A stretch of 64,000 nt of DNA, from positions 1,073 to 65,072 of IMG/VR virus record IMGVR_UViG_3300025759_000088; one strand, given 5' to 3'. The position numbers were made by a program, and so were the translations under genes. This DNA comes from a virus. Its lineage: Duplodnaviria > Caudoviricetes. The stretch's first letter is position 1, and each line of letters starts with the position of its first letter. Below are positions 8,642 through 63,342 of this stretch, piece after piece. The notes under the pieces are model-generated. The model was not told the origin of the DNA. It made no database searches and was given only the letters and a program-made list of their open reading frames with translations.

Positions 8642-8959
8642 TCACTTTCGCGCCATCCAAGCTGTGGTCCCCATATACGCCCCGACTATTCCCGCGCCGG
8701 AAATATAGAATAAACTACTGATTTCACTCAAAGCTTGTATGCGTTCTACTGACACCCATGGTGTAAACATCGCCGCCGTAAAAACACCCATGCCAATCAG
8801 TGTAAACCGCGCCATACGCAATTGAGCCAAGCTCTTTCGCAAATCACGTTCTGTCTCTCGTATTTCTTTGGCGTGTTCTAATTCTTCATCTGTGATTTCG
8901 CCGTCACCGTCGAGATCATACCGCGCATACTCTGTGCCTTCTTGGAACTTTTTGCTCAT
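8642..8959 (-). CDS. EF-hand-like membrane protein
   Basis: DLDGDGEITDEE loop followed by two hydrophobic segments. Confidence 0.55.
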   Translation of the reverse strand: MSKKFQEGTEYARYDLDGDGEITDEELEHAKEIRETERDLRKSLAQLRMARFTLIGMGVFTAAMFTPWVSVERIQALSEISSLFYISGAGIVGAYMGTTAWMARK

Positions 8960-9648
8960 TTCTGACTGTCCCTCACCGCTTTTAAGGTTTCTTGCACCGT
9001 CATCTCTTTCTTAGCGTTTGGATCATACTTGCACTGATATTCAGAAGGAATAAATTCCAAATACTCAAATATCTGAGATTCAATAGTGTAGTTTTGCCCG
9101 CGGAACACACAAACTACCTGACGGTTGTCCATCTTTTCGCATTTAACTTTACGACAGGTTGTCATTTGTTCGGCGTTAGCAGTATGGGACTTTAATAACA
9201 GCACAAAAATAACCAAAGCTGTCGTGCCTACGGCTGCGGTAAGTACCCACGCCACGATTTCAACAAACTTTCGTCTACGCTCACGCTGGCGATACAATGT
9301 TTCTTTACGCCTTTTGCGTATTTGCCCTTCCATTGCTACAAGTTGATCCCATTTTGACTTACCCATAGTCAAAGAAATCCACTGTTGTAACTCGTAACGT
9401 TGTTGCTGCGCCTTCTGCTTGTTGGCAAAAGTCGTTATGGCTTCTTGCTCTACGCTTTGACCACCGAACAGTTTTTTAAATATAGGGGGGTTCTTTGCCT
9501 CTTTCTCCATCTGATCAAGGTCAGATAAAGCGCCCATCCATCTTGACAGGTCAGAGGCCATAGACTCAATGTCCCGGCCAATGGCGAAGCCCTTTTTAAG
9601 GGCTCCAAATGCCGCCGAAGCGGTTGCCATTGCAGATACCGGATCCAT
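8956..9648 (-). CDS. Single-pass membrane protein with Cys-rich C-terminal domain
   Basis: TM helix then four Cys; close homologue at 62647..63342. Confidence 0.75.
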   Translation of the reverse strand: MDPVSAMATASAAFGALKKGFAIGRDIESMASDLSRWMGALSDLDQMEKEAKNPPIFKKLFGGQSVEQEAITTFANKQKAQQQRYELQQWISLTMGKSKWDQLVAMEGQIRKRRKETLYRQRERRRKFVEIVAWVLTAAVGTTALVIFVLLLKSHTANAEQMTTCRKVKCEKMDNRQVVCVFRGQNYTIESQIFEYLEFIPSEYQCKYDPNAKKEMTVQETLKAVRDSQK

Positions 9649-15808: not shown

Positions 15809-17258
15809 AATACGAGCGTACCTGAGTATAGTTGTCCTCGTCTATGTCCCAATCGTCCGTAGGTAACGATACGAAATTGCCCTGACGGTATCGCATCAGA
15901 GCTTGGGTCATACTATCGACAAGGTCATCATACTCACCATTGGGAAAAGCCGCAACTTCCTCAATAAGCTCGTCCGCAAATGTCTCATCCGGCGCATACA
16001 CCATCCCCGCCTCAAACAAAGGAGATACAGAATGGACACGCGACACCTTATCGTTGCCGCGAGATGGCGTAAAATTCACAACAGGAATGCCCATGTTACG
16101 TAATTCGTGTGTCAAAGGAGTCCCTGACGCCTTTGCTTCCACGATTACAGTATCGGGTTCCCAGAACTGATAGCTTTCATAAGCTTCTGCTTTCAACTCT
16201 GGAAAATCCCACCGGCCCTTCTTGCTATCTAACAAAATGACCGCCGGGGGCCCCCCAATTTCTTCCGGGCGAAATACACCCCACGTCGTTATAGCGCTGT
16301 AGTCAGCAGTCTCGCGCTTTGAAAACGCCGTGTCATAACTTTGAATGACATACTCAAGATTAGGGACGTTGTCTTTTTCCCACCGCTTCCACCACTCTCG
16401 CGGGATAATTGCGTTCTCTTCACCTGTAGGACGCTGTTGATACTGCGCGTTCCACTTTGACGGCGGGATAGACGCCTTGACCCTTTCAAGATCGTCTTTT
16501 GACCAAAACTCCGGCCAACAAGGTTCCTCATCGTCCATAATCGCAGGAAGTTCCACAACTTCCCACTGATCCGCTTTCTCATCTTTACCCATTTGACGAA
16601 TAAGCTGACCGGTCAAATCCTTTTGTGACCAACGAGTCATTACCAAAATGATCGCCCCGCCGGGCTGCAAACGCTGTCGGGGGCCCCCTGTGTACCAATC
16701 CCAGTCATTGTCAAAACCCGACGCCGACATAGCCGTCTGCTCAGAATGGGGGTCGTCAATAATAATTAGATCGCCGCCGCGGCCAGCAAGATTACTGCCA
16801 ACGCCGACAGCATAGTACATGCCGCCACGTGAAGTGTCCCACCGGCCTGACGCCTTGGAATCCGCCGATAATTTCGCTTCAGGAAAAATCTCAGCATAAT
16901 CTTCTCGCTCTAGAAGGTTCTTCACCTTACGGCCAAAGGATACAGCAAGCTCCGTGGTGTGCGTTGCCTGAATGATTTTCATCGCCGGGTTCTGCCCAAT
17001 AAACCACGCAGGCAGAAGATAACTGGCAAACTCAGACTTTGTGTGACGCGGGGCCATGTTGATGATCAAACGCTTCAATTCGCCCTTGGCTACGCGCTCA
17101 AACTTCTCTGCAATTATACGATGATGCTCGCCAGCAATGAAGTCCGGCCAGACCGCTTTCACAAATCCCAAGAAGTCCGTCTGACAGTGTTCAACACGAT
17201 TTAATTGAGCTAGTCGAAGCTGTAACTTGACTACTTTATCTTGGATTTCATCGCTCAT
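15801..17258 (-). CDS. terL: Terminase large subunit
   Basis: IINMAPRHTKS Walker A, IIIDDP Walker B, VMTRW; nuclease SYDTA..DYSA..DDLVDS. Confidence 0.95.
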   Translation of the reverse strand: MSDEIQDKVVKLQLRLAQLNRVEHCQTDFLGFVKAVWPDFIAGEHHRIIAEKFERVAKGELKRLIINMAPRHTKSEFASYLLPAWFIGQNPAMKIIQATHTTELAVSFGRKVKNLLEREDYAEIFPEAKLSADSKASGRWDTSRGGMYYAVGVGSNLAGRGGDLIIIDDPHSEQTAMSASGFDNDWDWYTGGPRQRLQPGGAIILVMTRWSQKDLTGQLIRQMGKDEKADQWEVVELPAIMDDEEPCWPEFWSKDDLERVKASIPPSKWNAQYQQRPTGEENAIIPREWWKRWEKDNVPNLEYVIQSYDTAFSKRETADYSAITTWGVFRPEEIGGPPAVILLDSKKGRWDFPELKAEAYESYQFWEPDTVIVEAKASGTPLTHELRNMGIPVVNFTPSRGNDKVSRVHSVSPLFEAGMVYAPDETFADELIEEVAAFPNGEYDDLVDSMTQALMRYRQGNFVSLPTDDWDIDEDNYTQVRSYYG

Positions 17259-20682: not shown

Positions 20683-21099
20683 ACGGAAAAACTGCTCCCA
20701 ATCAATCGGGGCATCTATTTTAAAATGCGGTTTTAAAAGAAGCCCGCGGTCAACAAGCTCAACCGCCTGATCCGCACGATACACGTGGGCGTGTCGATCC
20801 TTGCAGCGCACAATGACAAACGATGCGGTGTGCTTGTGCTGCTCCATCCATGCAACCTGATGAGGCGATAGCCGAACAGCAACGCCGGTTGCCGTTTTTA
20901 ACTCCCAAAAAGAAAAGTCCCCTGTCTCGCCGCAAACGACAAGATCGGGGACGCCTTGAGATGCCCAGCTTTCTATTCGCGTCAGCCTGACGTCAGGCCG
21001 GTGCTTCTTCTGGTTCTTCTTTATACTCTGGTAGAAGCTCGCTTCCAGATTCTTCGGCGTCTTTTTCGACGGGCGTGATATCGATAACGGAAGATCCAT
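20665..21099 (-). CDS. PD-(D/E)XK nuclease (VRR-NUC/resolvase-like)
   Basis: E..F, GVPDL, WELK and LSPHQVAW motifs. Confidence 0.75.
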   Translation of the reverse strand: MDLPLSISRPSKKTPKNLEASFYQSIKKNQKKHRPDVRLTRIESWASQGVPDLVVCGETGDFSFWELKTATGVAVRLSPHQVAWMEQHKHTASFVIVRCKDRHAHVYRADQAVELVDRGLLLKPHFKIDAPIDWEQFFRLTIPV

Positions 21100-21568
21100 A
21101 TTGCTTTTTAATCTCTTCTAGTTCTTTCATCACTTCATCACGGCTCATGCTGTCAATAGAACCGTGCCGCACTTCAGATTTGCTGATGTAGATATCCCCG
21201 TGCGCCTGCCCCCGGCGGTACTCCGCCTGCACGGCGGCTGAATATGCTCCATTGTCCAAAGCTTCATCACGTATGCGCTGCAGGTCACGGACATGACGAT
21301 GGTAAGTGATTGCATACCGCTCGTTCAGTTCGTCCCGATACATCTTGATCGCCTTGGCAACATTCGGGTGCTTGTGGGGGTTCAAAAGTTCAGAAGCTTT
21401 GACCGACGCACTCTTTTCAGAGAAGCCCGCGTTTAAAGCGCATTGCTTCTTACTAATCATGCCGTCGTTGGAAACGTATTCCTTAACGAATTTCTTTTGC
21501 TTTTCAGAGAGCGGGGAGTCCGGTGTCAGCCGCGGACGACCAACAGGGTTTACTTTTACGATTTCCAT
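20993..21568 (-). CDS. terS: Terminase small subunit
   Basis: LSEKQKKFVKEY..CALNAGFSEKSA..ASELL HTH typical of TerS. Confidence 0.75.
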   Translation of the reverse strand: MEIVKVNPVGRPRLTPDSPLSEKQKKFVKEYVSNDGMISKKQCALNAGFSEKSASVKASELLNPHKHPNVAKAIKMYRDELNERYAITYHRHVRDLQRIRDEALDNGAYSAAVQAEYRRGQAHGDIYISKSEVRHGSIDSMSRDEVMKELEEIKKQYGSSVIDITPVEKDAEESGSELLPEYKEEPEEAPA

Positions 21569-21629
21569 GACGTGCCCTTATGTTTGAAATCATTCCAAAT
21601 ATAAGGGTAAGTGCGGGTTTAAAACAAGG

Positions 21630-21853
21630 TGTTACACCTCTAATTTCGCGTTACACAAAAAAGTAACGATATTTGCCTTCTTTATGTAAGGATTTCAACG
21701 ATGTTACACTTTTCACATTTGTCACAGCACTGTGGGAAGAAAAAAAATTATTTTTTTTTCTAGCCCTATAGAAAAGTTTTGGATTTTAGAACCCTTTGTC
21801 ACCTTGGGTTTGAGCGTTACATATTTGGTTTTTCAAAAGTGTAACAAAGTAAC
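21630..21853. repeat. Cluster of GTTAC(AC)/GTAAC repeats (iteron-like)
   Basis: GTTACAC at 21631, 21650, 21703; GTTACAT at 21816; GTAAC at 21663, 21841, 21849; TGTCAC variants; AT-rich non-coding region. Confidence 0.65.
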
Positions 21854-21918
21854 GCCCCGCCCTAAGAAAGGACGAGGCGCTACAAACCAAAACAACACGG
21901 AGAAAGAACACAACCGTT
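21843..21918 (-). ncRNA. Putative antisense sRNA against early-gene ribosome-binding leaders
   Basis: Promoter TTGACG(21952-21947)-17-TACGGT; GU-rich body; 11-bp hairpin fully paired only in minus orientation (G-U pairs), then a U-rich tail. Confidence 0.6.
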
Positions 21919-21955
21919 AATGAACCGTAGGCCGCGTTCTCTGCCCCGTCAAGCG

Positions 21956-22180
21956 TTATTCGTCATTCCTTGCAACTTTTAGTGTTGCGGATGCTTCGAC
22001 GATGTTTGGTATTCTCATTCTGGCTTTTATCATCAGGGACTGTGCTTCGTGCAGCTTGCTGATTGCTTCGTCGAGGAAGGGCTTTTCGCCCGGCAGCGCT
22101 TCCAGCCACAGGTCATTGACGGCGTGGATAGCTTGATTAAGCAGTGCGGCTGCTTCTTGGTGTTCATTGACACTATTCAT
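21956..22180 (-). CDS. Hypothetical protein
   Basis: ATGA overlap with the upstream gene; start moved to MNSVNEH. Confidence 0.55.
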   Translation of the reverse strand: MNSVNEHQEAAALLNQAIHAVNDLWLEALPGEKPFLDEAISKLHEAQSLMIKARMRIPNIVEASATLKVARNDE

Positions 22181-22368
22181 TCCCAATATACTCCCAGTGT
22201 TTCGACGCGGATGCACACCGCTTCTTCATTTACGGGCATATCTTCCCAGAACATTTTTGTTGCTGCGACGTGGCATTGTGCAATGGTGTCGAAGACTCCT
22301 ACGTTTTTCACGATGAACTCTTCAACACCTACCGCGGTGATCCACAGCAACACCCAGTTAACCGTCAT
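22177..22368 (-). CDS. Small hypothetical protein
   Basis: Hydrophobic N-terminus with a C...C pattern; start moved to MTVNW. Confidence 0.55.
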   Translation of the reverse strand: MTVNWVLLWITAVGVEEFIVKNVGVFDTIAQCHVAATKMFWEDMPVNEEAVCIRVETLGVYWE

Positions 22369-22657
22369 TTTTCTTTGGGCGTCCGCGTTTCTTGGGCGCG
22401 GGCTTGTTTTCTTCTGCCAGCACCCAATTTCCAAAGCCGTTCCATTCGGTATTTTCTGGCCGTTGGAATTGAAGCGTTTGCTGCATCCGGTGCATCAGCG
22501 TTTCCAGATTACGCAAATCGGAAATCCAGAGATCGTTGCATTCCCAGATGGTTTGCAGCGCTGTCCGCAGTTCGTTGTGCGAGTCGAGCAGTTTCCGGCG
22601 GGCGGCTGCGTCGATGGTCAAGTCCCCGGTTGTGGGGCTCACGTGGCTTTTATTCAT
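22358..22657 (-). CDS. Hypothetical protein with basic KKRGRPKK tail
   Basis: AGGAGAG RBS before the ATG at 22657. Confidence 0.6.
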   Translation of the reverse strand: MNKSHVSPTTGDLTIDAAARRKLLDSHNELRTALQTIWECNDLWISDLRNLETLMHRMQQTLQFQRPENTEWNGFGNWVLAEENKPAPKKRGRPKKNDG

Positions 22658-22685
22658 TGGTGTCTCTCCTGTTGTTGACCCGGTT

Positions 22686-22713
22686 ATTATGGGAACCGTC
22701 CCATACAAGTCAA
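22686..22713 (-). promoter_or_regulatory. Leftward early promoter with perfect palindromic operator
   Basis: TTGACT-16-CATAAT on minus; TATGGGA-ACCG-TCCCATA at 22688-22705. Confidence 0.75.
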
Positions 22714-22851
22714 GCAAAAAAATGCAGATGTTTTTGTATTTGCTTGTTAACCATATTCTGGTTGACTGCACATTAGAATCATTTCAAGTTAACCACATTT
22801 CAGTTTAACTAATTGATTTCATTAATAAAAAAGGTGCGACACTATGTCACA

Positions 22852-22880
22852 TGGACTGTATGGGAGTTATCCTTTAAGAT
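22852..22880 (+). promoter_or_regulatory. Rightward early promoter with operator in the spacer
   Basis: TGGACT-17-TAAGAT; TATGGGA-GTTA-TCCTTTA at 22859-22876. Confidence 0.7.
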
Positions 22881-22924
22881 AGAATGTTAGCTCGAAATAG
22901 GGCTATGGGCTTTCGGGCCCGGAA

Positions 22925-22940
22925 TGTTTCACGTGAAACA
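22925..22940. promoter_or_regulatory. parS: parS centromere-like site
   Basis: Exact TGTTTCACGTGAAACA inside a 22-bp palindrome (22922-22943). Confidence 0.8.
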
Positions 22941-22984
22941 TTCGCTATTTGAAATCGTAAACCAAACAACCAACGGAGGTCAGT

Positions 22985-23293
22985 ATGTCTGACGCCAAAC
23001 CGTCTTTCCTTGCCATCATCTTTATTGGGTGCGGAAGCTCTTGGGCCTACGGCTCATCGGCTGACGAAGCCGCCACCAGTGCAGCGAGCATTCTTGTTCG
23101 TGACTGGAGCAGCTTGTACACCTTTAAAGAAGAGGTGCCGGTCAACATCTTCGATGTCGAAGATTACGACGGGTTCCACGCCACCCATCAGGGTGTGTTC
23201 GGAACCAAGGATGATATCCCCGACGACGAAGGGGTAGCGTTGGAGTGCCTTGAAACGAGGCACGTGCCGACGCCCCCGCAGCCGCGGAGATAA
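22985..23293 (+). CDS. Hypothetical early protein
   Basis: GGAGG RBS; first gene after the rightward promoter. Confidence 0.7.
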   Translation: MSDAKPSFLAIIFIGCGSSWAYGSSADEAATSAASILVRDWSSLYTFKEEVPVNIFDVEDYDGFHATHQGVFGTKDDIPDDEGVALECLETRHVPTPPQPRR

Positions 23294-23355
23294 GACCTAC
23301 GCCCCCCTACCTACGGTAGGGGGGTAGACCTCCCAGCCACCAAAGGAGAAAGTAA

Positions 23356-23655
23356 ATGGCTGAATTAAACGACACTGAGTTGAACGTAATGTGGGAAGCT
23401 TTAAACACTGTCTACTTCACAGACGAGAAGGGGATAGATGCCCACCGCAAGCTTTTGATGAAATACCGGCGGCAGGTTGCAAAGCAGCTTCACGGCGGTG
23501 CCATCAACGCGGCGGATGTCGAGTGTGGTACGCTTGAACATTACAACGAGCTTCGTGCCAAACGAAAGAAGGCTGTAGCCGACTCTGCTATGCAGAAGAT
23601 AAAAGAACAAGCGGAGTTAGACCATCTTCAAAAGACATTGGGGAAGATAGGCTGA
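23356..23655 (+). CDS. Hypothetical protein
   Basis: AAGGAG RBS. Confidence 0.7.
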   Translation: MAELNDTELNVMWEALNTVYFTDEKGIDAHRKLLMKYRRQVAKQLHGGAINAADVECGTLEHYNELRAKRKKAVADSAMQKIKEQAELDHLQKTLGKIG

Positions 23656-23930
23656 TGGCGCTTGATCTTGAAATTCATCTTTCGCAGTACGATCACAACG
23701 GCGCAGATTTCATCTGCCGGATAACCGGCAGAAGATTTGAGCTTGGCAATGAACCGGGGCTCTACGGCGGCGTGGTCTTCTATGAGGACGACGTCGATAG
23801 CCCCATCATGCGCTTTGGCCGCAACTACAAATCAAAACGTAGTACGCGGATTGCAAAGATACTTGAATGGTTTGAGGACCGTGAGGAGTTTCACGGGGGC
23901 CTTGTGGCAGTAAAGGTGAATAAAAAATAA
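23655..23930 (+). CDS. Hypothetical protein
   Basis: TGATG coupling to the upstream gene; ends at a terminator. Confidence 0.65.
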   Translation: MALDLEIHLSQYDHNGADFICRITGRRFELGNEPGLYGGVVFYEDDVDSPIMRFGRNYKSKRSTRIAKILEWFEDREEFHGGLVAVKVNKK

Positions 23931-23933
23931 AGG

Positions 23934-23960
23934 AAGGGCGGTCAATGACCGCCCTTTTTT
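23934..23960. terminator. Terminator between convergent genes
   Basis: AAGGGCGGTCA/TGACCGCCCTT hairpin plus T tract. Confidence 0.8.
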
Positions 23961-24243
23961 AATGCCGTGTTCCGTGGTCTAGGGTGTTTTGTGCGATTTC
24001 TTTTGCCATGCCTATCAGTTCATCGACATCGTTTTCATCGCGGCAGGCTTGCATTGCGTACTGCATCAGTGCGGTCATCACGCCCAGAATGACGATTGGT
24101 TCGTGTTCCGCGGCCTGTGCATCGACGTGCTTGCTTATTAAGTCGAGGGCATCGATACCCATTTCGTGACCAAGGCTGAAGTCCCCGCCGTTGGGATCCA
24201 GTTCTACTTCTTCTGCTTCATCAAACATGTTGGCAGTCTCCAC
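23959..24243 (-). CDS. Acidic hypothetical protein
   Basis: ORF behind a leftward promoter; start uncertain. Confidence 0.55.
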   Translation of the reverse strand: METANMFDEAEEVELDPNGGDFSLGHEMGIDALDLISKHVDAQAAEHEPIVILGVMTALMQYAMQACRDENDVDELIGMAKEIAQNTLDHGTRH

Positions 24244-24254
24244 TGTTCCAAACC

Positions 24255-24322
24255 GTTATATGGGATTATTCTTAGAATCGTCAAGGAAAAAGGTTGACGG
24301 CGTATGGGATGGCTCCTATCTT
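24255..24322. promoter_or_regulatory. Back-to-back divergent promoters, each with an operator
   Basis: Plus: TTGACG-17-TATCTT with TATGGGA-TGGC-TCCTATC (24303-24320); minus: TTGACG with TATGGGA-TTAT-TCTTAGA (24259-24276). Confidence 0.7.
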
Positions 24323-24357
24323 TAAAAGGTCAACAACGACAAACAAAAGAGAGAAAA

Positions 24358-25236
24358 ATGCAGATCATCAAAACACAGTCTGAAAAAGAGACAGAAATCA
24401 AGAACTTGGAGAAGTTTCTCCGCAAGTCCCCGACGAACAGCGTGGTGATGGAGTTCACACCATCGTTAGCAGAGTACATTTTGTCTAAGCTTAATATCGG
24501 CAATCGTCCTCAGAAGCCGCAGCGTATTGTAGATTACGCTAAAGACATGGCTTCGCACAACTGGTCATTGACCGGCGAGACAATCTGCTTCGGCGACAAC
24601 GGGCGTCTTTTAGATGGTCAGAACCGGTTAGCTGCTTGCATCCGGGCTCAGACATCATTTAAGACACATGTCATTTTTGGCATTGATCCTGCAACGTTCC
24701 ATCACATGGACACAGGAAAAAATCGTGGCGGGGACGATATTCTCGCAATCATGGGTGTACCAAACTCCGGTAAGGTAGCTGGTGCATTGAAGATGATACG
24801 GGCTTGGAAGCGCGGTGTAACGAACACGCAGGGCACTGTATCGAACCAGATCATTAAGGACATGTACCTTAATGAGATTGACGAAGAGCTTATGCAGCGG
24901 GCGATCAAGTCAGCTAAGAACGTTTACAACGTAATCAGCTACCCGATTGGTCAGACAGCTTCGCTGTACTATCTTGCCAGCTTGAACGGCGACGAAGAGC
25001 TTGTAGATAAGTTTTTTGCGGAGCTTCGCGTCGGCGGTTCGGGGACAAGCAAGTATCAGCCGTCCCGGCATCTTGTCGAAACATTGACGCGTATGAAGAT
25101 GAACCGTGAACGGCGGATCACGTCACATGACTATAGTGTGATGCTCACGCGGTCTTGGTACAATTTCAAGCACAAGAAGCGGAGCAAGAAGGCCGACATG
25201 GAAGTGTACCTTGACGACAAGCTGATGGAAATCTAG
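24358..25236 (+). CDS. ParB/Srx-like N-terminal domain protein
   Basis: NRP..RIVDYAKDM..W...GETI.F...GRLLDGQNRL motif. Confidence 0.65.
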   Translation: MQIIKTQSEKETEIKNLEKFLRKSPTNSVVMEFTPSLAEYILSKLNIGNRPQKPQRIVDYAKDMASHNWSLTGETICFGDNGRLLDGQNRLAACIRAQTSFKTHVIFGIDPATFHHMDTGKNRGGDDILAIMGVPNSGKVAGALKMIRAWKRGVTNTQGTVSNQIIKDMYLNEIDEELMQRAIKSAKNVYNVISYPIGQTASLYYLASLNGDEELVDKFFAELRVGGSGTSKYQPSRHLVETLTRMKMNRERRITSHDYSVMLTRSWYNFKHKKRSKKADMEVYLDDKLMEI

Positions 25237-25409
25237 TGCGCCATCGTGATGACATGACGCTTGAAGAGTTTAAAAAAGCTCTTCAAGCTATTCGTCAAAA
25301 GGCTCTTTACATACCGATACTAGAACACAGTAGACGAGGGCCTGAGACGCGTTCTTTAAAAAACACAACTCAGGCCGCTCGCGGTAGATTTTTTAGGAGG
25401 GAAGGATGA
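25236..25409 (+). CDS. Small hypothetical protein
   Basis: Open frame coupled to the ParB-like stop; not in the ORF track. Confidence 0.35.
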   Translation: MRHRDDMTLEEFKKALQAIRQKALYIPILEHSRRGPETRSLKNTTQAARGRFFRREG

Positions 25410-25576
25410 AGAGAGTTATGTTCTACTCAAAGTGTGTTGAGTGCGGCGACAAAGCCGACACAGCATATGGCAAGCTTTTCTACTGTGCCGCCTGTTGGTT
25501 GAAGTTTTTCTCTTCTGGAAGGGTATCGACAGGCTTGTCTTGCATCAAACTGGACGCGCAAACCCCCAGATTATAA
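25406..25576 (+). CDS. Small CxxC..CxxC zinc-finger-like protein
   Basis: AGGAGG RBS; CVEC...CAAC; overlaps the convergent gene. Confidence 0.4.
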   Translation: MKRVMFYSKCVECGDKADTAYGKLFYCAACWLKFFSSGRVSTGLSCIKLDAQTPRL

Positions 25577-25731
25577 AGAGCTTCCTGCATAGGATTGTCT
25601 GAAGCTTTCCCGCGGCCTGTGAGAAACACCTCGCAGGCCGTTCCTGTTTGTGGATGATAGCTGACGGTTACAGTGAGGCCCATGCCTACATCTTCTGTGA
25701 CGCATGGTCGGCGGTTAGGTAAGGCTGTCAT
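25480..25731 (-). CDS. Stand-alone TSCPD-like domain (class II ribonucleotide reductase C-terminal-like)
   Basis: LPNRR..T....TV.Y......EVF....K pattern. Confidence 0.55.
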   Translation of the reverse strand: MTALPNRRPCVTEDVGMGLTVTVSYHPQTGTACEVFLTGRGKASDNPMQEALYNLGVCASSLMQDKPVDTLPEEKNFNQQAAQ

Positions 25732-25782
25732 GGTTTTCTCCCGTTGTTAAACAATAACGATATGTAGAAAAAACCAGAAGTT

Positions 25783-25950
25783 CTAGCCTTGACCTTTCTT
25801 TTTTATTTGGTAGCCCTCTGTGCGGCAGAACACGTCGAACATAACGCGCAACTGACCGGAGATGCTTCTGTTCTCCATCTGTGCGATTTGTTTAATCCCG
25901 CGGTAAATATCCATCGGGACTACGATTGATTTCCACTTCTCGACATCCAT
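25783..25950 (-). CDS. Ribbon-helix-helix (Arc/CopG-like) DNA-binding protein
   Basis: 55 aa MDVEKWKSIVVPMDIYRGIKQIAQMENRSISGQLRVMF..; own promoter TTGCAA-17-TATATT; not in the ORF track. Confidence 0.7.
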   Translation of the reverse strand: MDVEKWKSIVVPMDIYRGIKQIAQMENRSISGQLRVMFDVFCRTEGYQIKKKGQG

Positions 25951-26012
25951 AACACCCTCTACTGGTACAGTTATACTCTGAGAGAATATAAGACTTTATG
26001 TTAATGATTGCA

Positions 26013-26133
26013 ACAAAAAACCCCGCCGAAGCGGGGTTTGCTTAAATGTCCCAGTCTGCTTTTTAAGGAGGATAAATCCTCTGACAAGGGAGTTCTAAGT
26101 TTTTAGAAAAACACTGGTGTGTCTCTCTCGACA
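26013..26133 (-). ncRNA. Putative sRNA with anti-Shine-Dalgarno motifs
   Basis: TTGACA(26167-26162)-17-CATATA promoter; CUCCC and UCCUCCUU motifs; CCCCGC-UUCG-GCGGGG terminator with U tract. Confidence 0.5.
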
Positions 26134-26168
26134 ATCAATATATGAAGGACGAAGGCATTACTGTCAAC

Positions 26169-26194
26169 AAAAAAGGCCCCGCCGGAGCGGGGCC
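26169..26194 (-). terminator. polA terminator
   Basis: GGCCCCGC/GCGGGGCC hairpin plus T tract on minus. Confidence 0.8.
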
Positions 26195-26222
26195 AGTCTC
26201 TAAGGGAGGAATACCATGAAAA

Positions 26223-28127
26223 CTACATCGAATCGCCCCAACTGGAGCCCATTTCGATATCGGTCTGCATCGGCACTTTTAAATCTATTGCATCACACAT
26301 GATTCCTGCAAGTGTTTTTGCTTCTGCCTCGTCGGCGACACTGAAGGCTAGCTCGTCATGTACCTGCAGCAGGGGCAGCACACCAGCTTTGTAGATGTCT
26401 ACCATTGCCTTCTTCGTCATGTCGGCGGCGGACGCCTGTATGAGCCTGTTAAGGGCTTTGTATGCATATGCCCGCTGCAGGCTGACATTGGGCCCGTAAT
26501 AAGCTTTGGCTTCCTCGTAGGGCATTGCCTTGTGCATGCCGAAGCTCTGCGGCTCAAAGTCAGGAAACCGGCACTTACGCCCCAGCAGGGAGCGGATAGA
26601 GCCTTCTTTGTTTCCGTTCTGCACACGCTCCTGCACCGCCCGCATCAGACGCTTCACAAAGGGGACGCGGCTATCATACTGCGTCATTAGTTCCTTTGCT
26701 TCCTCCTTCGACAGGTCAAGCTGATCGGCAAGCTTTCCTACGCCCATGCCGTACATCATGCCAAGGTTGATCGTCTTTGCCTGTTTGCGCGGGATATCGG
26801 CGATACCAGCCACCATGTCATGGAAATCCATGTCGGGGTTGTTAGTGTAGCCGTCCACAAACTCATCCACCCGCGGCATTTCTTTGCCGGTGGCTTCCTG
26901 AAAAGCCGCTGCAAAGTGAACCAAGATCCGTGGTTCCTGTTGCGAATAGTCTATAGAAGCCCACTTCTGGCCTTCTTCTGGTTTGAACACGGATCGTATC
27001 AACGGGCCAAGGTCCGGGTGCCGTGCAGGAATTTGCTGCAAGTTGGGGTTTGACATGGATATGCGCCCGGACACTGTACCGCCGTCATCTGACCTGATTT
27101 GGTTGATGTGGCCGTGGACACGCCCATCCTTGCCGACGTGCTTTAAAAGCCCATCCATGAAGGTGTTCTTGCTTTTGTTAAACTCACGCGCCTGCAGGAT
27201 TGCTTTGGGCAGATCGTGCGTGTGCGTGGTCAGGAAAGCTTTGGTAAAGGATGGCGCATTCTTTTCAGTCTTGGGGTAGCTGATGTCGAGCTTGTCGAAG
27301 GCTTTGGCTATTGACTGCGCTGCCCATATTTCTACATCGAAGCCGACCAGAGACTTTATCTGTTTCACGGCGGCTTTCTCTTGCTGCAGCATAAACTGGC
27401 TGGCGCGTTCCATTGCGTCAGTGTCCACCCGGATACCGCGCAGAGTCATATCCACAAGACATGGCAGCAAGTCTCGCTCCAGCGCATGGACGGTGGTGAG
27501 CCCCTGCTTGCCTATCTCAACTTTAAAATATGTCCAAAGTTCCAACGTAAGCTCCGCGTCGGCGGTAGCATACTCTCCCACAAACATGGCGGGCATCTTC
27601 CACATTTCGGACTTGGGGTCCAAGCCAAAATCCTTTGCCGCTTGCACCAGACCCTTTTCGGACTTGGTCTTGTTCAGGTGGTCGTAACAAACAGAGTTAA
27701 GGCTATAACTAAATCTATTTTCATCTAGCAGCGCAGCGACGACCATCGTGTCGATGATATGGCCGTTCACTTCAAAGCCGCTCGCTTTGAGCCATCCAAG
27801 ATCATACTGTGCGTTATGCATTACTTTGTCGGCGGGGCAGGCAAGCACCTTCTTCATCCAGTTGTTGACGATGCGCTTGTCGAGGTTGCCGCCGCCAAGG
27901 TGGGCGATTGGTAAGTAACCGCTCCACCCGTCACAGGCGACAGCGTAACCTATAACTTCCCCGTCATTGCGGGGCCAACCGGGGCCCAACGTCTTCAGGT
28001 TCGGGTCACGAGTTTCCAAGTCGATAGCAATTTCTTTTCTATCGGTAATGTCGGGCAACTCTGACGGCGGTGTCCAATCTGTCTTTTGATTAAACATCAC
28101 CAGTTGCAGTCCATCATTCCTCTTCAT
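26223..28127 (-). CDS. polA: DNA polymerase family A (3'-5' exonuclease plus polymerase)
   Basis: DLET, HNAQYD, SGRISMSNPNLQQIP, DYSQQEPR, KTINLGMMYG and QVHDEL motifs. Confidence 0.95.
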   Translation of the reverse strand: MKRNDGLQLVMFNQKTDWTPPSELPDITDRKEIAIDLETRDPNLKTLGPGWPRNDGEVIGYAVACDGWSGYLPIAHLGGGNLDKRIVNNWMKKVLACPADKVMHNAQYDLGWLKASGFEVNGHIIDTMVVAALLDENRFSYSLNSVCYDHLNKTKSEKGLVQAAKDFGLDPKSEMWKMPAMFVGEYATADAELTLELWTYFKVEIGKQGLTTVHALERDLLPCLVDMTLRGIRVDTDAMERASQFMLQQEKAAVKQIKSLVGFDVEIWAAQSIAKAFDKLDISYPKTEKNAPSFTKAFLTTHTHDLPKAILQAREFNKSKNTFMDGLLKHVGKDGRVHGHINQIRSDDGGTVSGRISMSNPNLQQIPARHPDLGPLIRSVFKPEEGQKWASIDYSQQEPRILVHFAAAFQEATGKEMPRVDEFVDGYTNNPDMDFHDMVAGIADIPRKQAKTINLGMMYGMGVGKLADQLDLSKEEAKELMTQYDSRVPFVKRLMRAVQERVQNGNKEGSIRSLLGRKCRFPDFEPQSFGMHKAMPYEEAKAYYGPNVSLQRAYAYKALNRLIQASAADMTKKAMVDIYKAGVLPLLQVHDELAFSVADEAEAKTLAGIMCDAIDLKVPMQTDIEMGSSWGDSM

Positions 28128-60751: not shown

Positions 60752-61489
60752 CTATGGCGTGTTCGCTGTACCGCCCATGCCGCTGTGGTTTGTGCAGTAA
60801 TAATACAGAGTTGGAGTCCCCGAGGCTACCGTGATCTGTGTGTAAGCTCCCGAGCTACCCGGGGAACCGTTAGTAGATACACCTGTTGTATACTCGGAAC
60901 CCCCGGCGTGAGTGCCGTTGGCAGTTTCTGAAAACCGGAAGGGATGCCCCGAGTTGCTGTTGTCTGATTGATCGAACCTGTAGGTAGAACCCTCGCTTAA
61001 CGTAAGCGTCGGAGAAGCCCCCGACAAACCAGCAACATAATACTTATTGCCTGTTCCGTAAGAATTTGTTCCCGAAGCAACAGTAACTGTGTAGTTCGTA
61101 ACGATTCCAACTGAAACAGAATTTACGCCGCCAGTGGCGGAAACCCCGGTTATGGATACAGTAACAGTCCCTGATGGTGTTGTACCTGTTGTGACTACGT
61201 CTCCCACAAATCCATGCATGACTGCAACAGGAGACACTTCCAGCGTCCGTGAGTTAAACGTGGGAAATGTTATAGTGACTGAATGAATAATCGAGGGTGG
61301 TCGTGGATTGTGAAGAGCCTGCGGATCCGGCCCCACTCGAACGGGCTGTAGTTGAGGATGCTTCGTCTCATACTCATCAGGTCCGACTTTTAAACCATTC
61401 CACTCCGTAACCATTTCTCGAAGACGATACCGGAATCCGGATCTATCCGAATAGCCCCAGGCGTCTTTTCCTGAAGCGAACCGCGCCAT
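60752..61489 (-). CDS. Virion protein with cupredoxin-like domain (second homologue)
   Basis: Homologous to 76..876. Confidence 0.7.
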   Translation of the reverse strand: MARFASGKDAWGYSDRSGFRYRLREMVTEWNGLKVGPDEYETKHPQLQPVRVGPDPQALHNPRPPSIIHSVTITFPTFNSRTLEVSPVAVMHGFVGDVVTTGTTPSGTVTVSITGVSATGGVNSVSVGIVTNYTVTVASGTNSYGTGNKYYVAGLSGASPTLTLSEGSTYRFDQSDNSNSGHPFRFSETANGTHAGGSEYTTGVSTNGSPGSSGAYTQITVASGTPTLYYYCTNHSGMGGTANTP

Positions 61490-62157
61490 TAGTTCACCCT
61501 CAGATACTGAATGCTTGGCTGTAGCTTGAGAGCCACACGATCTTCATCTTCATCTGCGGCTCGTTGAAACTCTTCTTCGTAAACCACTTTCAAAAGCTGC
61601 ACACGTTCCGGCGCTTTCTTCATCGCAAGATAGTATGCAAGACCAGCGACCATACACGGCAGAAATCTAAACGGTGCATCCGTGGTGTTCACCAAAGCAT
61701 CAGCGTCTTGAATTCTTTGCACGTAATAATAAACTAAGCTGTCTGTCGAATTTTCAGGAGTCGGCCACAGTGTAACTTGTGGTGTTACTTGCCTGTTGTA
61801 GAAATACTGGCTGGGGCGTCCTGTCTGTGTTTTATTGGGCGTCGTCAAGTATTCGCTTCGAGACATGCGGTCAAGCTGGTAGTCCGTGCCGCTTCTTCGA
61901 ATCACAACCTCAAGTAGATCCGTGTACGCTGTGTCGAAGGTGTACGTAGCAGTTCCTGCGGTCAACGCCTGTGTTCCCTGCTGCACCGTCCACAGATTCA
62001 AGCCACGGTTAGCCCAGTCTGCAAACATAAGATTCAGAGACCTACGAGCCGTACGCGCATCATAACCGGTGCGAACCTCAAGACCGCACCGCTCATATGC
62101 TTCTTCGATAATCTCTGCTACATCGAGATCAAAATCTCTGGATCCGGAAGTTGCCAT
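61489..62157 (-). CDS. Head-tail adaptor / tail tubular-like protein (second homologue)
   Basis: Collinear 222-aa homologue of 876..1544. Confidence 0.65.
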   Translation of the reverse strand: MATSGSRDFDLDVAEIIEEAYERCGLEVRTGYDARTARRSLNLMFADWANRGLNLWTVQQGTQALTAGTATYTFDTAYTDLLEVVIRRSGTDYQLDRMSRSEYLTTPNKTQTGRPSQYFYNRQVTPQVTLWPTPENSTDSLVYYYVQRIQDADALVNTTDAPFRFLPCMVAGLAYYLAMKKAPERVQLLKVVYEEEFQRAADEDEDRVALKLQPSIQYLRVN

Positions 62158-62646: not shown

Positions 62647-63342
62647 TCAGTCTCTCGACTTCCGTATTTGTTCAAGACTCTCTTGTATTGTCATGTCTTT
62701 TTTTGCATTCGGATCATACTTGCACTGATATTCGTTTGGCACAAATTCTAGGTACTGAAAAAACTGAGACTCAATGGTATTGTTTGCGCCTCGGAATACG
62801 CAAACCATTTCTCTGTTATCCAGCTTTTCACACTTCACCTTACGACAAGTAACCATTTGATCAGCACTAGCTGAATGCGCTTTTAACAATAGTATAAAGG
62901 CCAATAAAGCCGAGACAGCAATTCCGGAAAACAAAATCCACGCTACGATCTCTACAAACTTACGTCGGCGTTCACGTTGACGGTACAACGTCTCCTTGCG
63001 CCTCTTTCTTATTTGGCCTTCCATTGCCACCAGTGAATCCCACTTGGACTTGCCCATAGTGAGGCTTATCCACTGCTGTAGCTCATAGCGCTGCTGCTGC
63101 GCTTTTTGCTTGTTAGCAAAAGTCGTTATGGCCTCTTGTTCGACGCTCTGGCCGCCGAACAGTTTTTTAAAAATTGGAGGGTTTTTTGCTTCTTTCTCCA
63201 TCTGATCAAGGTCAGATAAAGCGCCCATCCAGCGCGAAAGATCAGACGCCATTGCCTCAATATCACGACCAACAGCAAAGCCCTTCTTTAAAGCCGAGAA
63301 TGCCGCTGAAGCGGTTGCCATTGCTGATATAGGATCCATCAA
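62647..63342 (-). CDS. Single-pass membrane protein (homologue of 8956..9648)
   Basis: Near-identical N-terminal ~130 aa. Confidence 0.75.
   Translation of the reverse strand: MMDPISAMATASAAFSALKKGFAVGRDIEAMASDLSRWMGALSDLDQMEKEAKNPPIFKKLFGGQSVEQEAITTFANKQKAQQQRYELQQWISLTMGKSKWDSLVAMEGQIRKRRKETLYRQRERRRKFVEIVAWILFSGIAVSALLAFILLLKAHSASADQMVTCRKVKCEKLDNREMVCVFRGANNTIESQFFQYLEFVPNEYQCKYDPNAKKDMTIQESLEQIRKSRD

Follow-up and report, generated by a model that had tools for sequence, protein, structure and literature searches.

The stretch of DNA analysed here, called the window throughout, comprises 64,000 bases of the tailed-phage record IMGVR_UViG_3300025759_000088 of IMG/VR (65,072 bp, rated complete by CheckV), and our subject is a perfect copy of the bacterial chromosomal partition site, parS, in its early control region. 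The phage has a G+C content of ~49%. Its tailed-phage genes code for the small and large terminase subunits (TerS and TerL), an SU10-type portal, head and tail-fibre proteins and an endolysin, and its replication module for a family-A DNA polymerase, an archaeo-eukaryotic primase (AEP), and UvrD-like and SNF2 helicases. TerL is 59% identical to that of HTVC027P and 53% identical to that of HTVC023P, both Pelagibacter phages, and 61-62% identical to the TerL of two uncultured-host phages. These identities place the phage near the HTVC023P-type pelagiphage group, for which PMC9599517 gives a mean genome size of 58.8 kb and a G+C content of 42.1 +/- 6.4%. Pelagibacter is the host of the nearest cultured relatives according to their database records, and a blastn search of positions 21500-26500 against cultured phages returned nothing. 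DNA runs labelled as freshwater metagenomes contain the stretch, and three marine metatranscriptome runs contain parts of it.

The parS site and its control region

The site lies within a 325-bp divergent intergenic region of the window. The features of this region, of the operon behind it and of a gene further downstream are as follows.

22686-22713, minus strand: divergent leftward promoter TTGACT-16-CATAAT with the palindrome TATGGGA-ACCG-TCCCATA (promoter search and alignment)
22746-22809, unstranded: GTTAAC-N10-GTTrAC repeats, the place of a second perfect parS in 7/10 related IMG/VR contigs
22835-22851, unstranded: palindromic operator TGCGACACTATGTCACA / TGCGACAcTATGTCaCA, overlapping the -35 of the rightward promoter; conserved
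22852-22885, plus strand: rightward early sigma-70-like promoter (-35 TGGACT at 22852-22857, -10 at ~22873-22885, TATGGGA in the spacer)
22886-22984, plus strand: putative 5' untranslated region (5'UTR) with two small hairpins, the parS hairpin, a conserved GCTATTTGAAATCG element and the ribosome-binding site GGAGG at 22975-22979
22922-22943, unstranded: 22-bp palindrome containing parS with an AA/TT flank (longest in the window; flank statistics)
22925-22940, unstranded: perfect parS TGTTTCACGTGAAACA (exact match; kept in 10/10 IMG/VR and 14/14 metagenome contigs)
22985-23293, 23356-23655 and 23655-23930, plus strand: three small open reading frames (ORFs) behind parS, one operon (open frames)
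23934-23956, unstranded: strong bidirectional terminator-like hairpin that ends the operon (terminator search)
24358-25236, plus strand: ParB/Srx-like protein of 292 residues (likely ATG start at 24358; 1.4 kb from parS; DGQNR motif; helical C-terminal half)

The exact 16-mer TGTTTCACGTGAAACA agrees with the chromosomal parS consensus at 16/16 positions, and the same sequence is the consensus that has served for finding parS across bacteria (Livny et al. 2007, as cited in PMC10197239). There is no other site within 3 mismatches in the window, nor within 2 mismatches in the whole 65,072-bp record. From base composition 1.6e-5 exact matches are expected in the window; an expectation of 0.36 applies to matches with up to 3 mismatches, not to exact ones. 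The 22-bp palindrome, which is perfect and has parS at its centre, is the longest of four perfect palindromes of at least 14 bp in the window. parS ends 44 nt 5' of the ATG at 22985, and thereby lies ~40-50 bp downstream of the rightward promoter and ahead of the ribosome-binding site of the small early operon. A sequence-only reading of this DNA had called an exact canonical parS at this position, downstream of an operator-bearing promoter. Both points hold, the first by direct match, with no second site within 3 mismatches in the window, and the second at the distance just given from a promoter that was read by eye.

This reading of the rightward promoter was made by analogy with two TATGGGA-type promoters from the promoter search, which itself omitted it. 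The promoter is conserved in the alignment of relatives, and the TATGGGA motif is found at only two other promoters in the window. Transcription would start at about 22885-22892. Contigs assembled from RNA libraries span 22518-23558 and 22807-22957, and since they cover the promoter itself they may represent carried-over DNA; such contigs cannot reveal transcription starts or levels.

Conservation in the close family

The operator-promoter pattern alone finds 10 IMG/VR contigs, all of which have a perfect parS in the 5'UTR, and a pattern of the two UTR flanks with the position of parS left free finds the same 10. Among metagenome contigs the same promoter pattern finds 14, in each of which a perfect parS lies at a distance of 90 or 113 bp, counted from the operator start; four or more of the 14 match an IMG/VR contig in length and are probably duplicates of those records. 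Three contigs (L145, L146 and L182) have a different first gene behind the UTR, yet both the UTR and parS are kept. It had been envisaged in the sequence-only reading that relatives might keep a hairpin here and lose the parS sequence. What the relatives keep is the exact parS, in every one of these contigs as well as in the diverged contexts described below, an outcome that favours the earlier reading.

In 7/10 IMG/VR and 7/14 metagenome contigs parS occurs a second time, again as a perfect copy, 47-60 bp to the upstream side of the operator. This second copy occurs in four different flanking sequences, between the divergent promoters, and points to a function on DNA rather than on RNA, because it would lie outside both of the predicted transcripts. 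The resulting order, parS-operator-promoter-parS, is seen in seven of the 10 IMG/VR contigs with the cassette and again in a more distant complete genome, G037.

Conservation in diverged relatives

We scanned 24 of the 80 loci returned as TerL relatives (20 longer contigs and four short close-relative contigs, 695 kb in all), leaving out contigs scanned before. The scan recovered nine perfect sites, one with 1 mismatch and one with 2 mismatches, distributed over nine contigs, seven of which have perfect sites. A reversed-pattern control gave 0 in the same 695 kb, and the numbers expected from base composition are 1.7e-4 for perfect sites and 0.19 for sites with at most 2 mismatches.

The contexts of parS in these diverged relatives are unrelated in sequence and alike in architecture. 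In the complete genome G012 (TerL 89% identical) the operator is the same while the UTR has diverged, and parS is perfect and downstream of the operator; this genome also keeps homologues of the second and third small ORFs behind parS. In G037 (TerL 75% identical) the order is parS, operator TGCGACACTATGTCGCA, promoter, parS. G016 and G029 have two sites 181 bp apart around a promoter, directly after terS and a VRR-NUC gene, and in G016 the two bracket a promoter-like stretch without a full operator. In G014, G015 and G019 parS abuts a TATGGGA-type promoter motif and precedes the start codon of terL by 32 bp, and in G018 it lies ~60 bp upstream of terL. The 95% complete G020 has a 1-mismatch site in the UTR behind TTGACA-N17-TAGAAT. 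The element GCTATTTGAAA recurs beside parS in G012 and G016.

A scan of IMG/VR for the exact 16-mer yielded at least 137 stretches. Among those listed, 11 have a TerL homologue, most of them with the site 34-154 bp upstream of the terL or terS start; in L071 and L025 it lies ~0.7-0.8 kb upstream of that start. L025 (1501-2288) and L065 (1501-2428), whose TerL is only ~30% identical, each contain five perfect copies of parS upstream of terL, spread over ~0.9 kb of DNA that is apparently non-coding, a cluster that looks like a centromere. Across the related phages, then, the perfect copies number one, two or five. They always occupy non-coding DNA that heads an operon, within the 5'UTR and 30-100 nt ahead of its first start codon, and a second copy is often found upstream of the promoter. 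As judged from these comparisons, parS is maintained by selection, being conserved beyond its flanks and commoner than chance.

Absence of partition genes and the likely reader of the site

Twelve records with parS, including four that are at least 95% complete, yielded neither ParB_N (PF02195) nor a ParA-type ATPase (PF13614) in searches whose controls matched; in L025 and L065 no ParB_N or ParA-type gene occurs in the parts of the contigs examined. The record of the window was also searched with profiles for tyrosine and serine recombinases, neither of which it contains (positive controls matched), and PHROGs profiles on the 81 ORFs scanned gave no integrase, repressor, ParA or partition family. 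The earlier statement that this phage has no ParA and no integrase thus agrees with the profile searches, in which PF13614, PF02195, PF17762 and recombinases were all absent from the record and the controls were found. No parAB pair accompanies parS here, in cis or on the same replicon, and the site is therefore an orphan. On present evidence the window has a genuine copy of the canonical chromosomal parS, an orphan that is under selection.

Our preferred reading is that these sites probably serve as loading (nucleation) sites for the chromosomal ParB of the host, on phages without ParA or ParB of their own. The reader of the site seems to have stayed constant while TerL diverged to 75% identity, and to ~30% in L025 and L065, which a conserved host protein fits better than a phage regulator. 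A phage reader encoded elsewhere in the genome would need to keep the exact bacterial consensus, so that a host protein is the simpler candidate, and we consider host ParB the likely reader.

Alternative explanations

The site might instead be a palindrome bound by a phage protein, either a packaging (pac) site read by TerS or the operator of an early regulator, its identity with parS being coincidence or convergence. One to five repeated sites beside terminase genes are typical of pac regions, and one to five sites near terminase genes are what we see, within ~1.5 kb and often 30-150 bp of the terS or terL start in every context. The sites also lie at promoters, as operators do, and further palindromic operators occur in this region of the close family. 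Yet the exact 16-mer is kept where TerS is 56-68% identical and TerL as little as ~30%, whereas operators and their regulators, like pac sites and TerS, normally co-diverge. Moreover, G017 retains a TerS homologue (56% identical) and lacks the site, while in G014 and G018 the site directly precedes terL and the stretch examined contains no TerS homologue. The genes downstream vary among parS contexts, and parS is but one of 65,536 possible 16-bp palindromes. A phage reader is accordingly unlikely in our estimate.

A second alternative is a DNA decoy, in which replicating phage DNA with one or two sites per copy would titrate ParB and so upset chromosome segregation and the placement of the division site. 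Where ParB is essential, additional copies of parS harm the bacterium. A decoy would need no phage protein, matching the absence of ParA and ParB, and the sites are of perfect consensus and presumably of the highest affinity. However, it could sit anywhere and would profit from many copies, whereas most genomes keep one or two in a fixed promoter/5'UTR layout. We regard this explanation as improbable.

It is also conceivable that the downstream parS acts in the mRNA, as a 5'UTR hairpin affecting stability or translation, and not on DNA. Its position, 30-70 nt before the start codon in the predicted 5'UTR, recurs in at least five diverged contexts, and it folds as the third of three hairpins. 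But the fold of the 5'UTR is unremarkable (z = -1.87), no Rfam family reaches its gathering score over 21000-26500, a stem would allow compensatory changes where the sequence is invariant, and the upstream copies lie outside the predicted 5'UTR, between divergent promoters or after a stop codon. A purely RNA-level role is very improbable.

Finally, the ParB/Srx-like protein encoded at 24358-25236 might read parS as part of a minimal phage ParB-parS pair, its gene lying 1.4 kb away in the window and in all close cassette relatives that extend that far and its N-terminal half weakly resembling the ParB-N, Srx, KorB-N and DndB folds, but this is close to refuted by lack of co-occurrence: a family profile that finds the gene in the positive controls G000, G002 and G006 does not find it in any of 10 further relatives, including the complete, parS-bearing G012, the parS-bearing G014, G016 and G019 and the 95%-complete G020 with its 1-mismatch site. 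The gene is likewise missing from the 4.5-kb contig L172, where terS comes directly after the complete parS cassette, and carriers of the gene that are 58% identical or less have no site within 4 kb. Because the gene is missing from complete relatives that keep parS, the protein appears to be a neighbour of the site and not its reader; the suspicion voiced in the sequence-only reading, that the two may be unrelated, is supported by these profile searches.

As for the protein itself, the ORF 1.4 kb from parS is real, while its ParB/Srx label rests on a weak fold match and the name of one homologue, which a source calls 'ParB/Sulfiredoxin domain-containing protein'. The motif DGQNR is invariant in the family. 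The protein has no Pfam match even at E-values up to 10, no six-frame PF02195 match and no match among NCBIfam, PADLOC or PDB sequences, and HTH_ParB (PF17762) matches neither it nor the record of the window (control matched). A structure model with a predicted local distance difference test (pLDDT) score of 88.9 gives, as its best though weak Foldseek match, pNOB8 ParB-N (E = 0.033, probability 0.85), followed by Noc and Srx. In VIA-align, Z-scores that lie below the tool's reliable level were obtained with sulfiredoxin (root-mean-square deviation 4.5 over 85 residues), PadC (3.3 over 92) and DndB (7.4 over 214), all at Z = 5.0-5.1, and with KorB-N (3.3 over 87) at Z = 4.8.

Distant carriers of the ParB/Srx-like gene (L147-L166, at most 58% identical) were considered as parS carriers in their own right and rejected, there being no site within 3 mismatches in the 4-9 kb available for each. 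The promoter and UTR motifs are absent from them as well, and a palindrome ~2 kb upstream in several of these carriers turned out to lie inside a coding region; they are different phages with only this gene in common. Whole-contig scans of contigs that carry the ParB/Srx-like gene only gave a 2-mismatch site in 3/5, one of them intergenic after a terminator hairpin; the meaning of these sites is uncertain and we have not counted them as parS.

Several observations weigh against host ParB as the reader. The conservation of the downstream site in the close family is inseparable from that of the 5'UTR, because the whole 5'UTR is conserved. The 40 distinct flank contexts, in which A occupies positions -1 and -2 in ~70% of half-sites with no preference further out, were mostly gathered by the exact 16-mer search and are for that reason silent on conservation inside the 16-mer; the mismatch-tolerant scans do bear on it, and in them perfect sites dominate. 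Some functional palindrome could by chance be identical with parS when very many windows are considered, at 1 in 65,536 16-bp palindromes, and the constant closeness to terS and terL would fit a packaging-recognition site read by a phage protein. In the complete genome G017 (39% G+C, TerL 78% identical) no site turns up with up to 2 mismatches allowed, and the interval from terS to the polymerase gene lacks a comparable palindrome. Sites within 2 mismatches are also missing from G026 (complete) and from the cultured HTVC023P, 023Pt_psg01 and DSL-LC04. HTVC027P has only a 1-mismatch site, CGTTTCACGTGAAACA, inside a coding region (L192 4413-4428, record 16412-16427), where it encodes the residues FHVKH of an unannotated ORF that looks VRR-NUC-like by eye. 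Since several relatives are without the site, the trait belongs to a subclade and not to the whole group. With respect to the host, no tRNA genes were found in the phage genome, nor did TerL have any relative in the scanned genome contigs of bacteria and archaea, so that neither search gives a clue to the host; the preferred reading presupposes a host with a ParB that uses this consensus. The empty searches for a repressor and an integrase also leave no sign of a temperate or carrier lifestyle.

Relation to known systems

The closest precedent for host ParB acting on phage parS sites is phi29, whose genome has five parS sites for the host protein Spo0J that are used in spore entrapment (Meijer et al. 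2005, as cited in PMC2731898). phi29 is classed as a lytic phage that is entrapped in spores (PMC2731898, PMC9437464). As described in PMC2731898, it has several host-type parS sites on its genome, and a host ParB homologue moves its genome by way of parS, where for the present phages binding is predicted from sequence. Like these phages, it has no ParA or ParB of its own. It differs in being entrapped in Bacillus spores and in the use of a second host factor, Spo0A, which represses promoters. The cultured relatives of our phage, on the other hand, infect Pelagibacter according to their records, and a sporulating host is not indicated. The sites considered here are moreover of perfect consensus and placed in a fixed promoter-operator-5'UTR layout.

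Plasmid-prophages (P1, N15 and the actinophage parABS systems) carry genes for ParA and ParB as well as parS sequences of their own. They have in common with the window phage a centromere-like site on a phage genome, but the latter encodes neither protein. Chromosomal ParABS centromeres use the identical 16-bp sequence in one to five copies within a short region (PMC10197239), whereas our sites have no parAB operon in cis and are found on a 65-kb phage genome by early promoters and terminase genes. ParB-family sites beside promoters, as seen here, are also known from the KorB/OB system of RK2 with KorA (PMC11790492), and from Pseudomonas aeruginosa, where repression next to parS3 and parS4 is described (PMC5521831). 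In our case two sites bracket a promoter that has a separate small palindromic operator, and the resemblance to KorB/KorA is positional only. KorB and KorA are encoded by the RK2 plasmid itself (PMC11790492), while ParB would here have to come from the host. Another mobile element, SGI1, has only a cis site and borrows the parABS proteins of IncC plasmids; it differs in borrowing from a helper plasmid and not from the chromosome, and in being an integrative island and not a phage (PMC10954446).

In the literature searched, which included few subscription journals, an orphan host-type parS in a phage is described only for the phi29 family. ParB is mentioned 0 times in the available text of PMC9599517, which deals with HTVC023P-type phages, and no paper on this type that was searched mentions it. 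The phi29/Spo0J precedent lowers the novelty of the finding. The principle is the same, and what is new is its occurrence in a different, ecologically widespread phage group without sign of a sporulating host, along with the perfect sites and the conserved promoter-linked architecture.

Possible consequences of ParB loading

If host ParB is indeed the reader, CTP-bound ParB dimers would load at the phage parS sites after entry of the DNA and from there spread, as clamps, across the control region of the early and terminase genes. They might then damp or time the bracketed promoter, as ParB-family proteins do at promoter-proximal sites. They might also allow the ParA machinery of the host to position or segregate the ParB-coated phage genome while lysis is deferred, as in phi29 with Spo0J. 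Given ParB binding, promoter control is by analogy a serious possibility, if short of even, and positioning or segregation a possible and more tentative one, while ParB titration or some other effect is doubtful. The first two are compatible, and together we rate them as the most likely consequences. An effect on transcription is suggested by the fixed placement of the site, which lies in the 5'UTR or abuts the -35 and frequently has an upstream partner, whereas the five-site clusters, like the phi29 precedent, speak for an unintegrated genome being positioned or segregated. Placement alone cannot choose between the two because the non-coding DNA is concentrated in this region.

A more elaborate scheme, which we consider quite unlikely as a whole, would have the host ParB clamp act as both borrowed regulator and anchor in widespread aquatic podovirus-like phages. 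Two parS sites would bracket the early promoter, and a small phage protein reading the separate palindromic operator would capture the host ParB clamps, following the logic of KorA and KorB with a host-supplied ParB. A single complex would thus silence early transcription and tie the unintegrated genome to the segregation machinery of the host, and the outcome would be a carrier state that needs neither repressor nor integrase and is coupled to the cell cycle of a non-sporulating host.

Other features of the region

The three small ORFs behind parS and the neighbouring small ORFs have no match in Pfam, NCBIfam, PADLOC or PHROGs. The first leftward early ORF (22361-22657, minus strand) has an AT-hook-like tail, KKRGRPKK, and the ORF opposite the terminator (23959-24228, minus strand) is strongly acidic; neither matches a known family. 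On the 3' side of the downstream parS, three otherwise diverged contexts, those of the window family, G012 and G016, share a short near-palindrome, GCTATTTGAAAT(C/A)G, which lies at 22948-22961 of the window and is also seen in L307 and L308. It could be bound by a second protein or belong to the structure of the UTR.

The non-coding stretch 21600-21960, between terS and the small leftward ORFs, is rich in GTAACA/TGTTAC words and includes a 12-bp inverted pair 121 nt apart (21702-21713 and 21835-21846). The distant relative L147 has a similar cluster at ~2030-2270. Such a cluster could serve as an origin, as a pac region or as a regulator array. Where the terS and VRR-NUC genes overlap there is a perfect palindrome of 14 bp, GCCTGACGTCAGGC, at 20985-20998. 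After the polymerase gene, at 26010-26233, there are sub-threshold Rfam matches (SorX, mmgR and other small-RNA models) that resemble terminator hairpins. This element is variable among contigs from sequencing runs, and one RNA-library contig has a copy of it ~140 nt from a parS in some relative.

At opposite ends of the window, the ORFs at 79-1544 and 60755-62157 match the same PHROGs (tail-fibre phrog_30742 and phrog_12985), and those at 8959-9648 and 62650-63342 both match phrog_32327. These pairs may be duplicated tail-fibre modules or an assembly effect near the record ends.

Conclusions

For annotation, these sites mean that an orphan parS in a viral contig is not always contamination from a plasmid or chromosome. 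If host ParB does load at them, they would be an example from nature of foreign DNA on whose promoters a chromosomal ParB acts, and the phi29/Spo0J principle would extend beyond spore-formers. A perfectly conserved site for a universal host protein would offer a testable handle on the persistence of integrase-less phages in slow-growing hosts.

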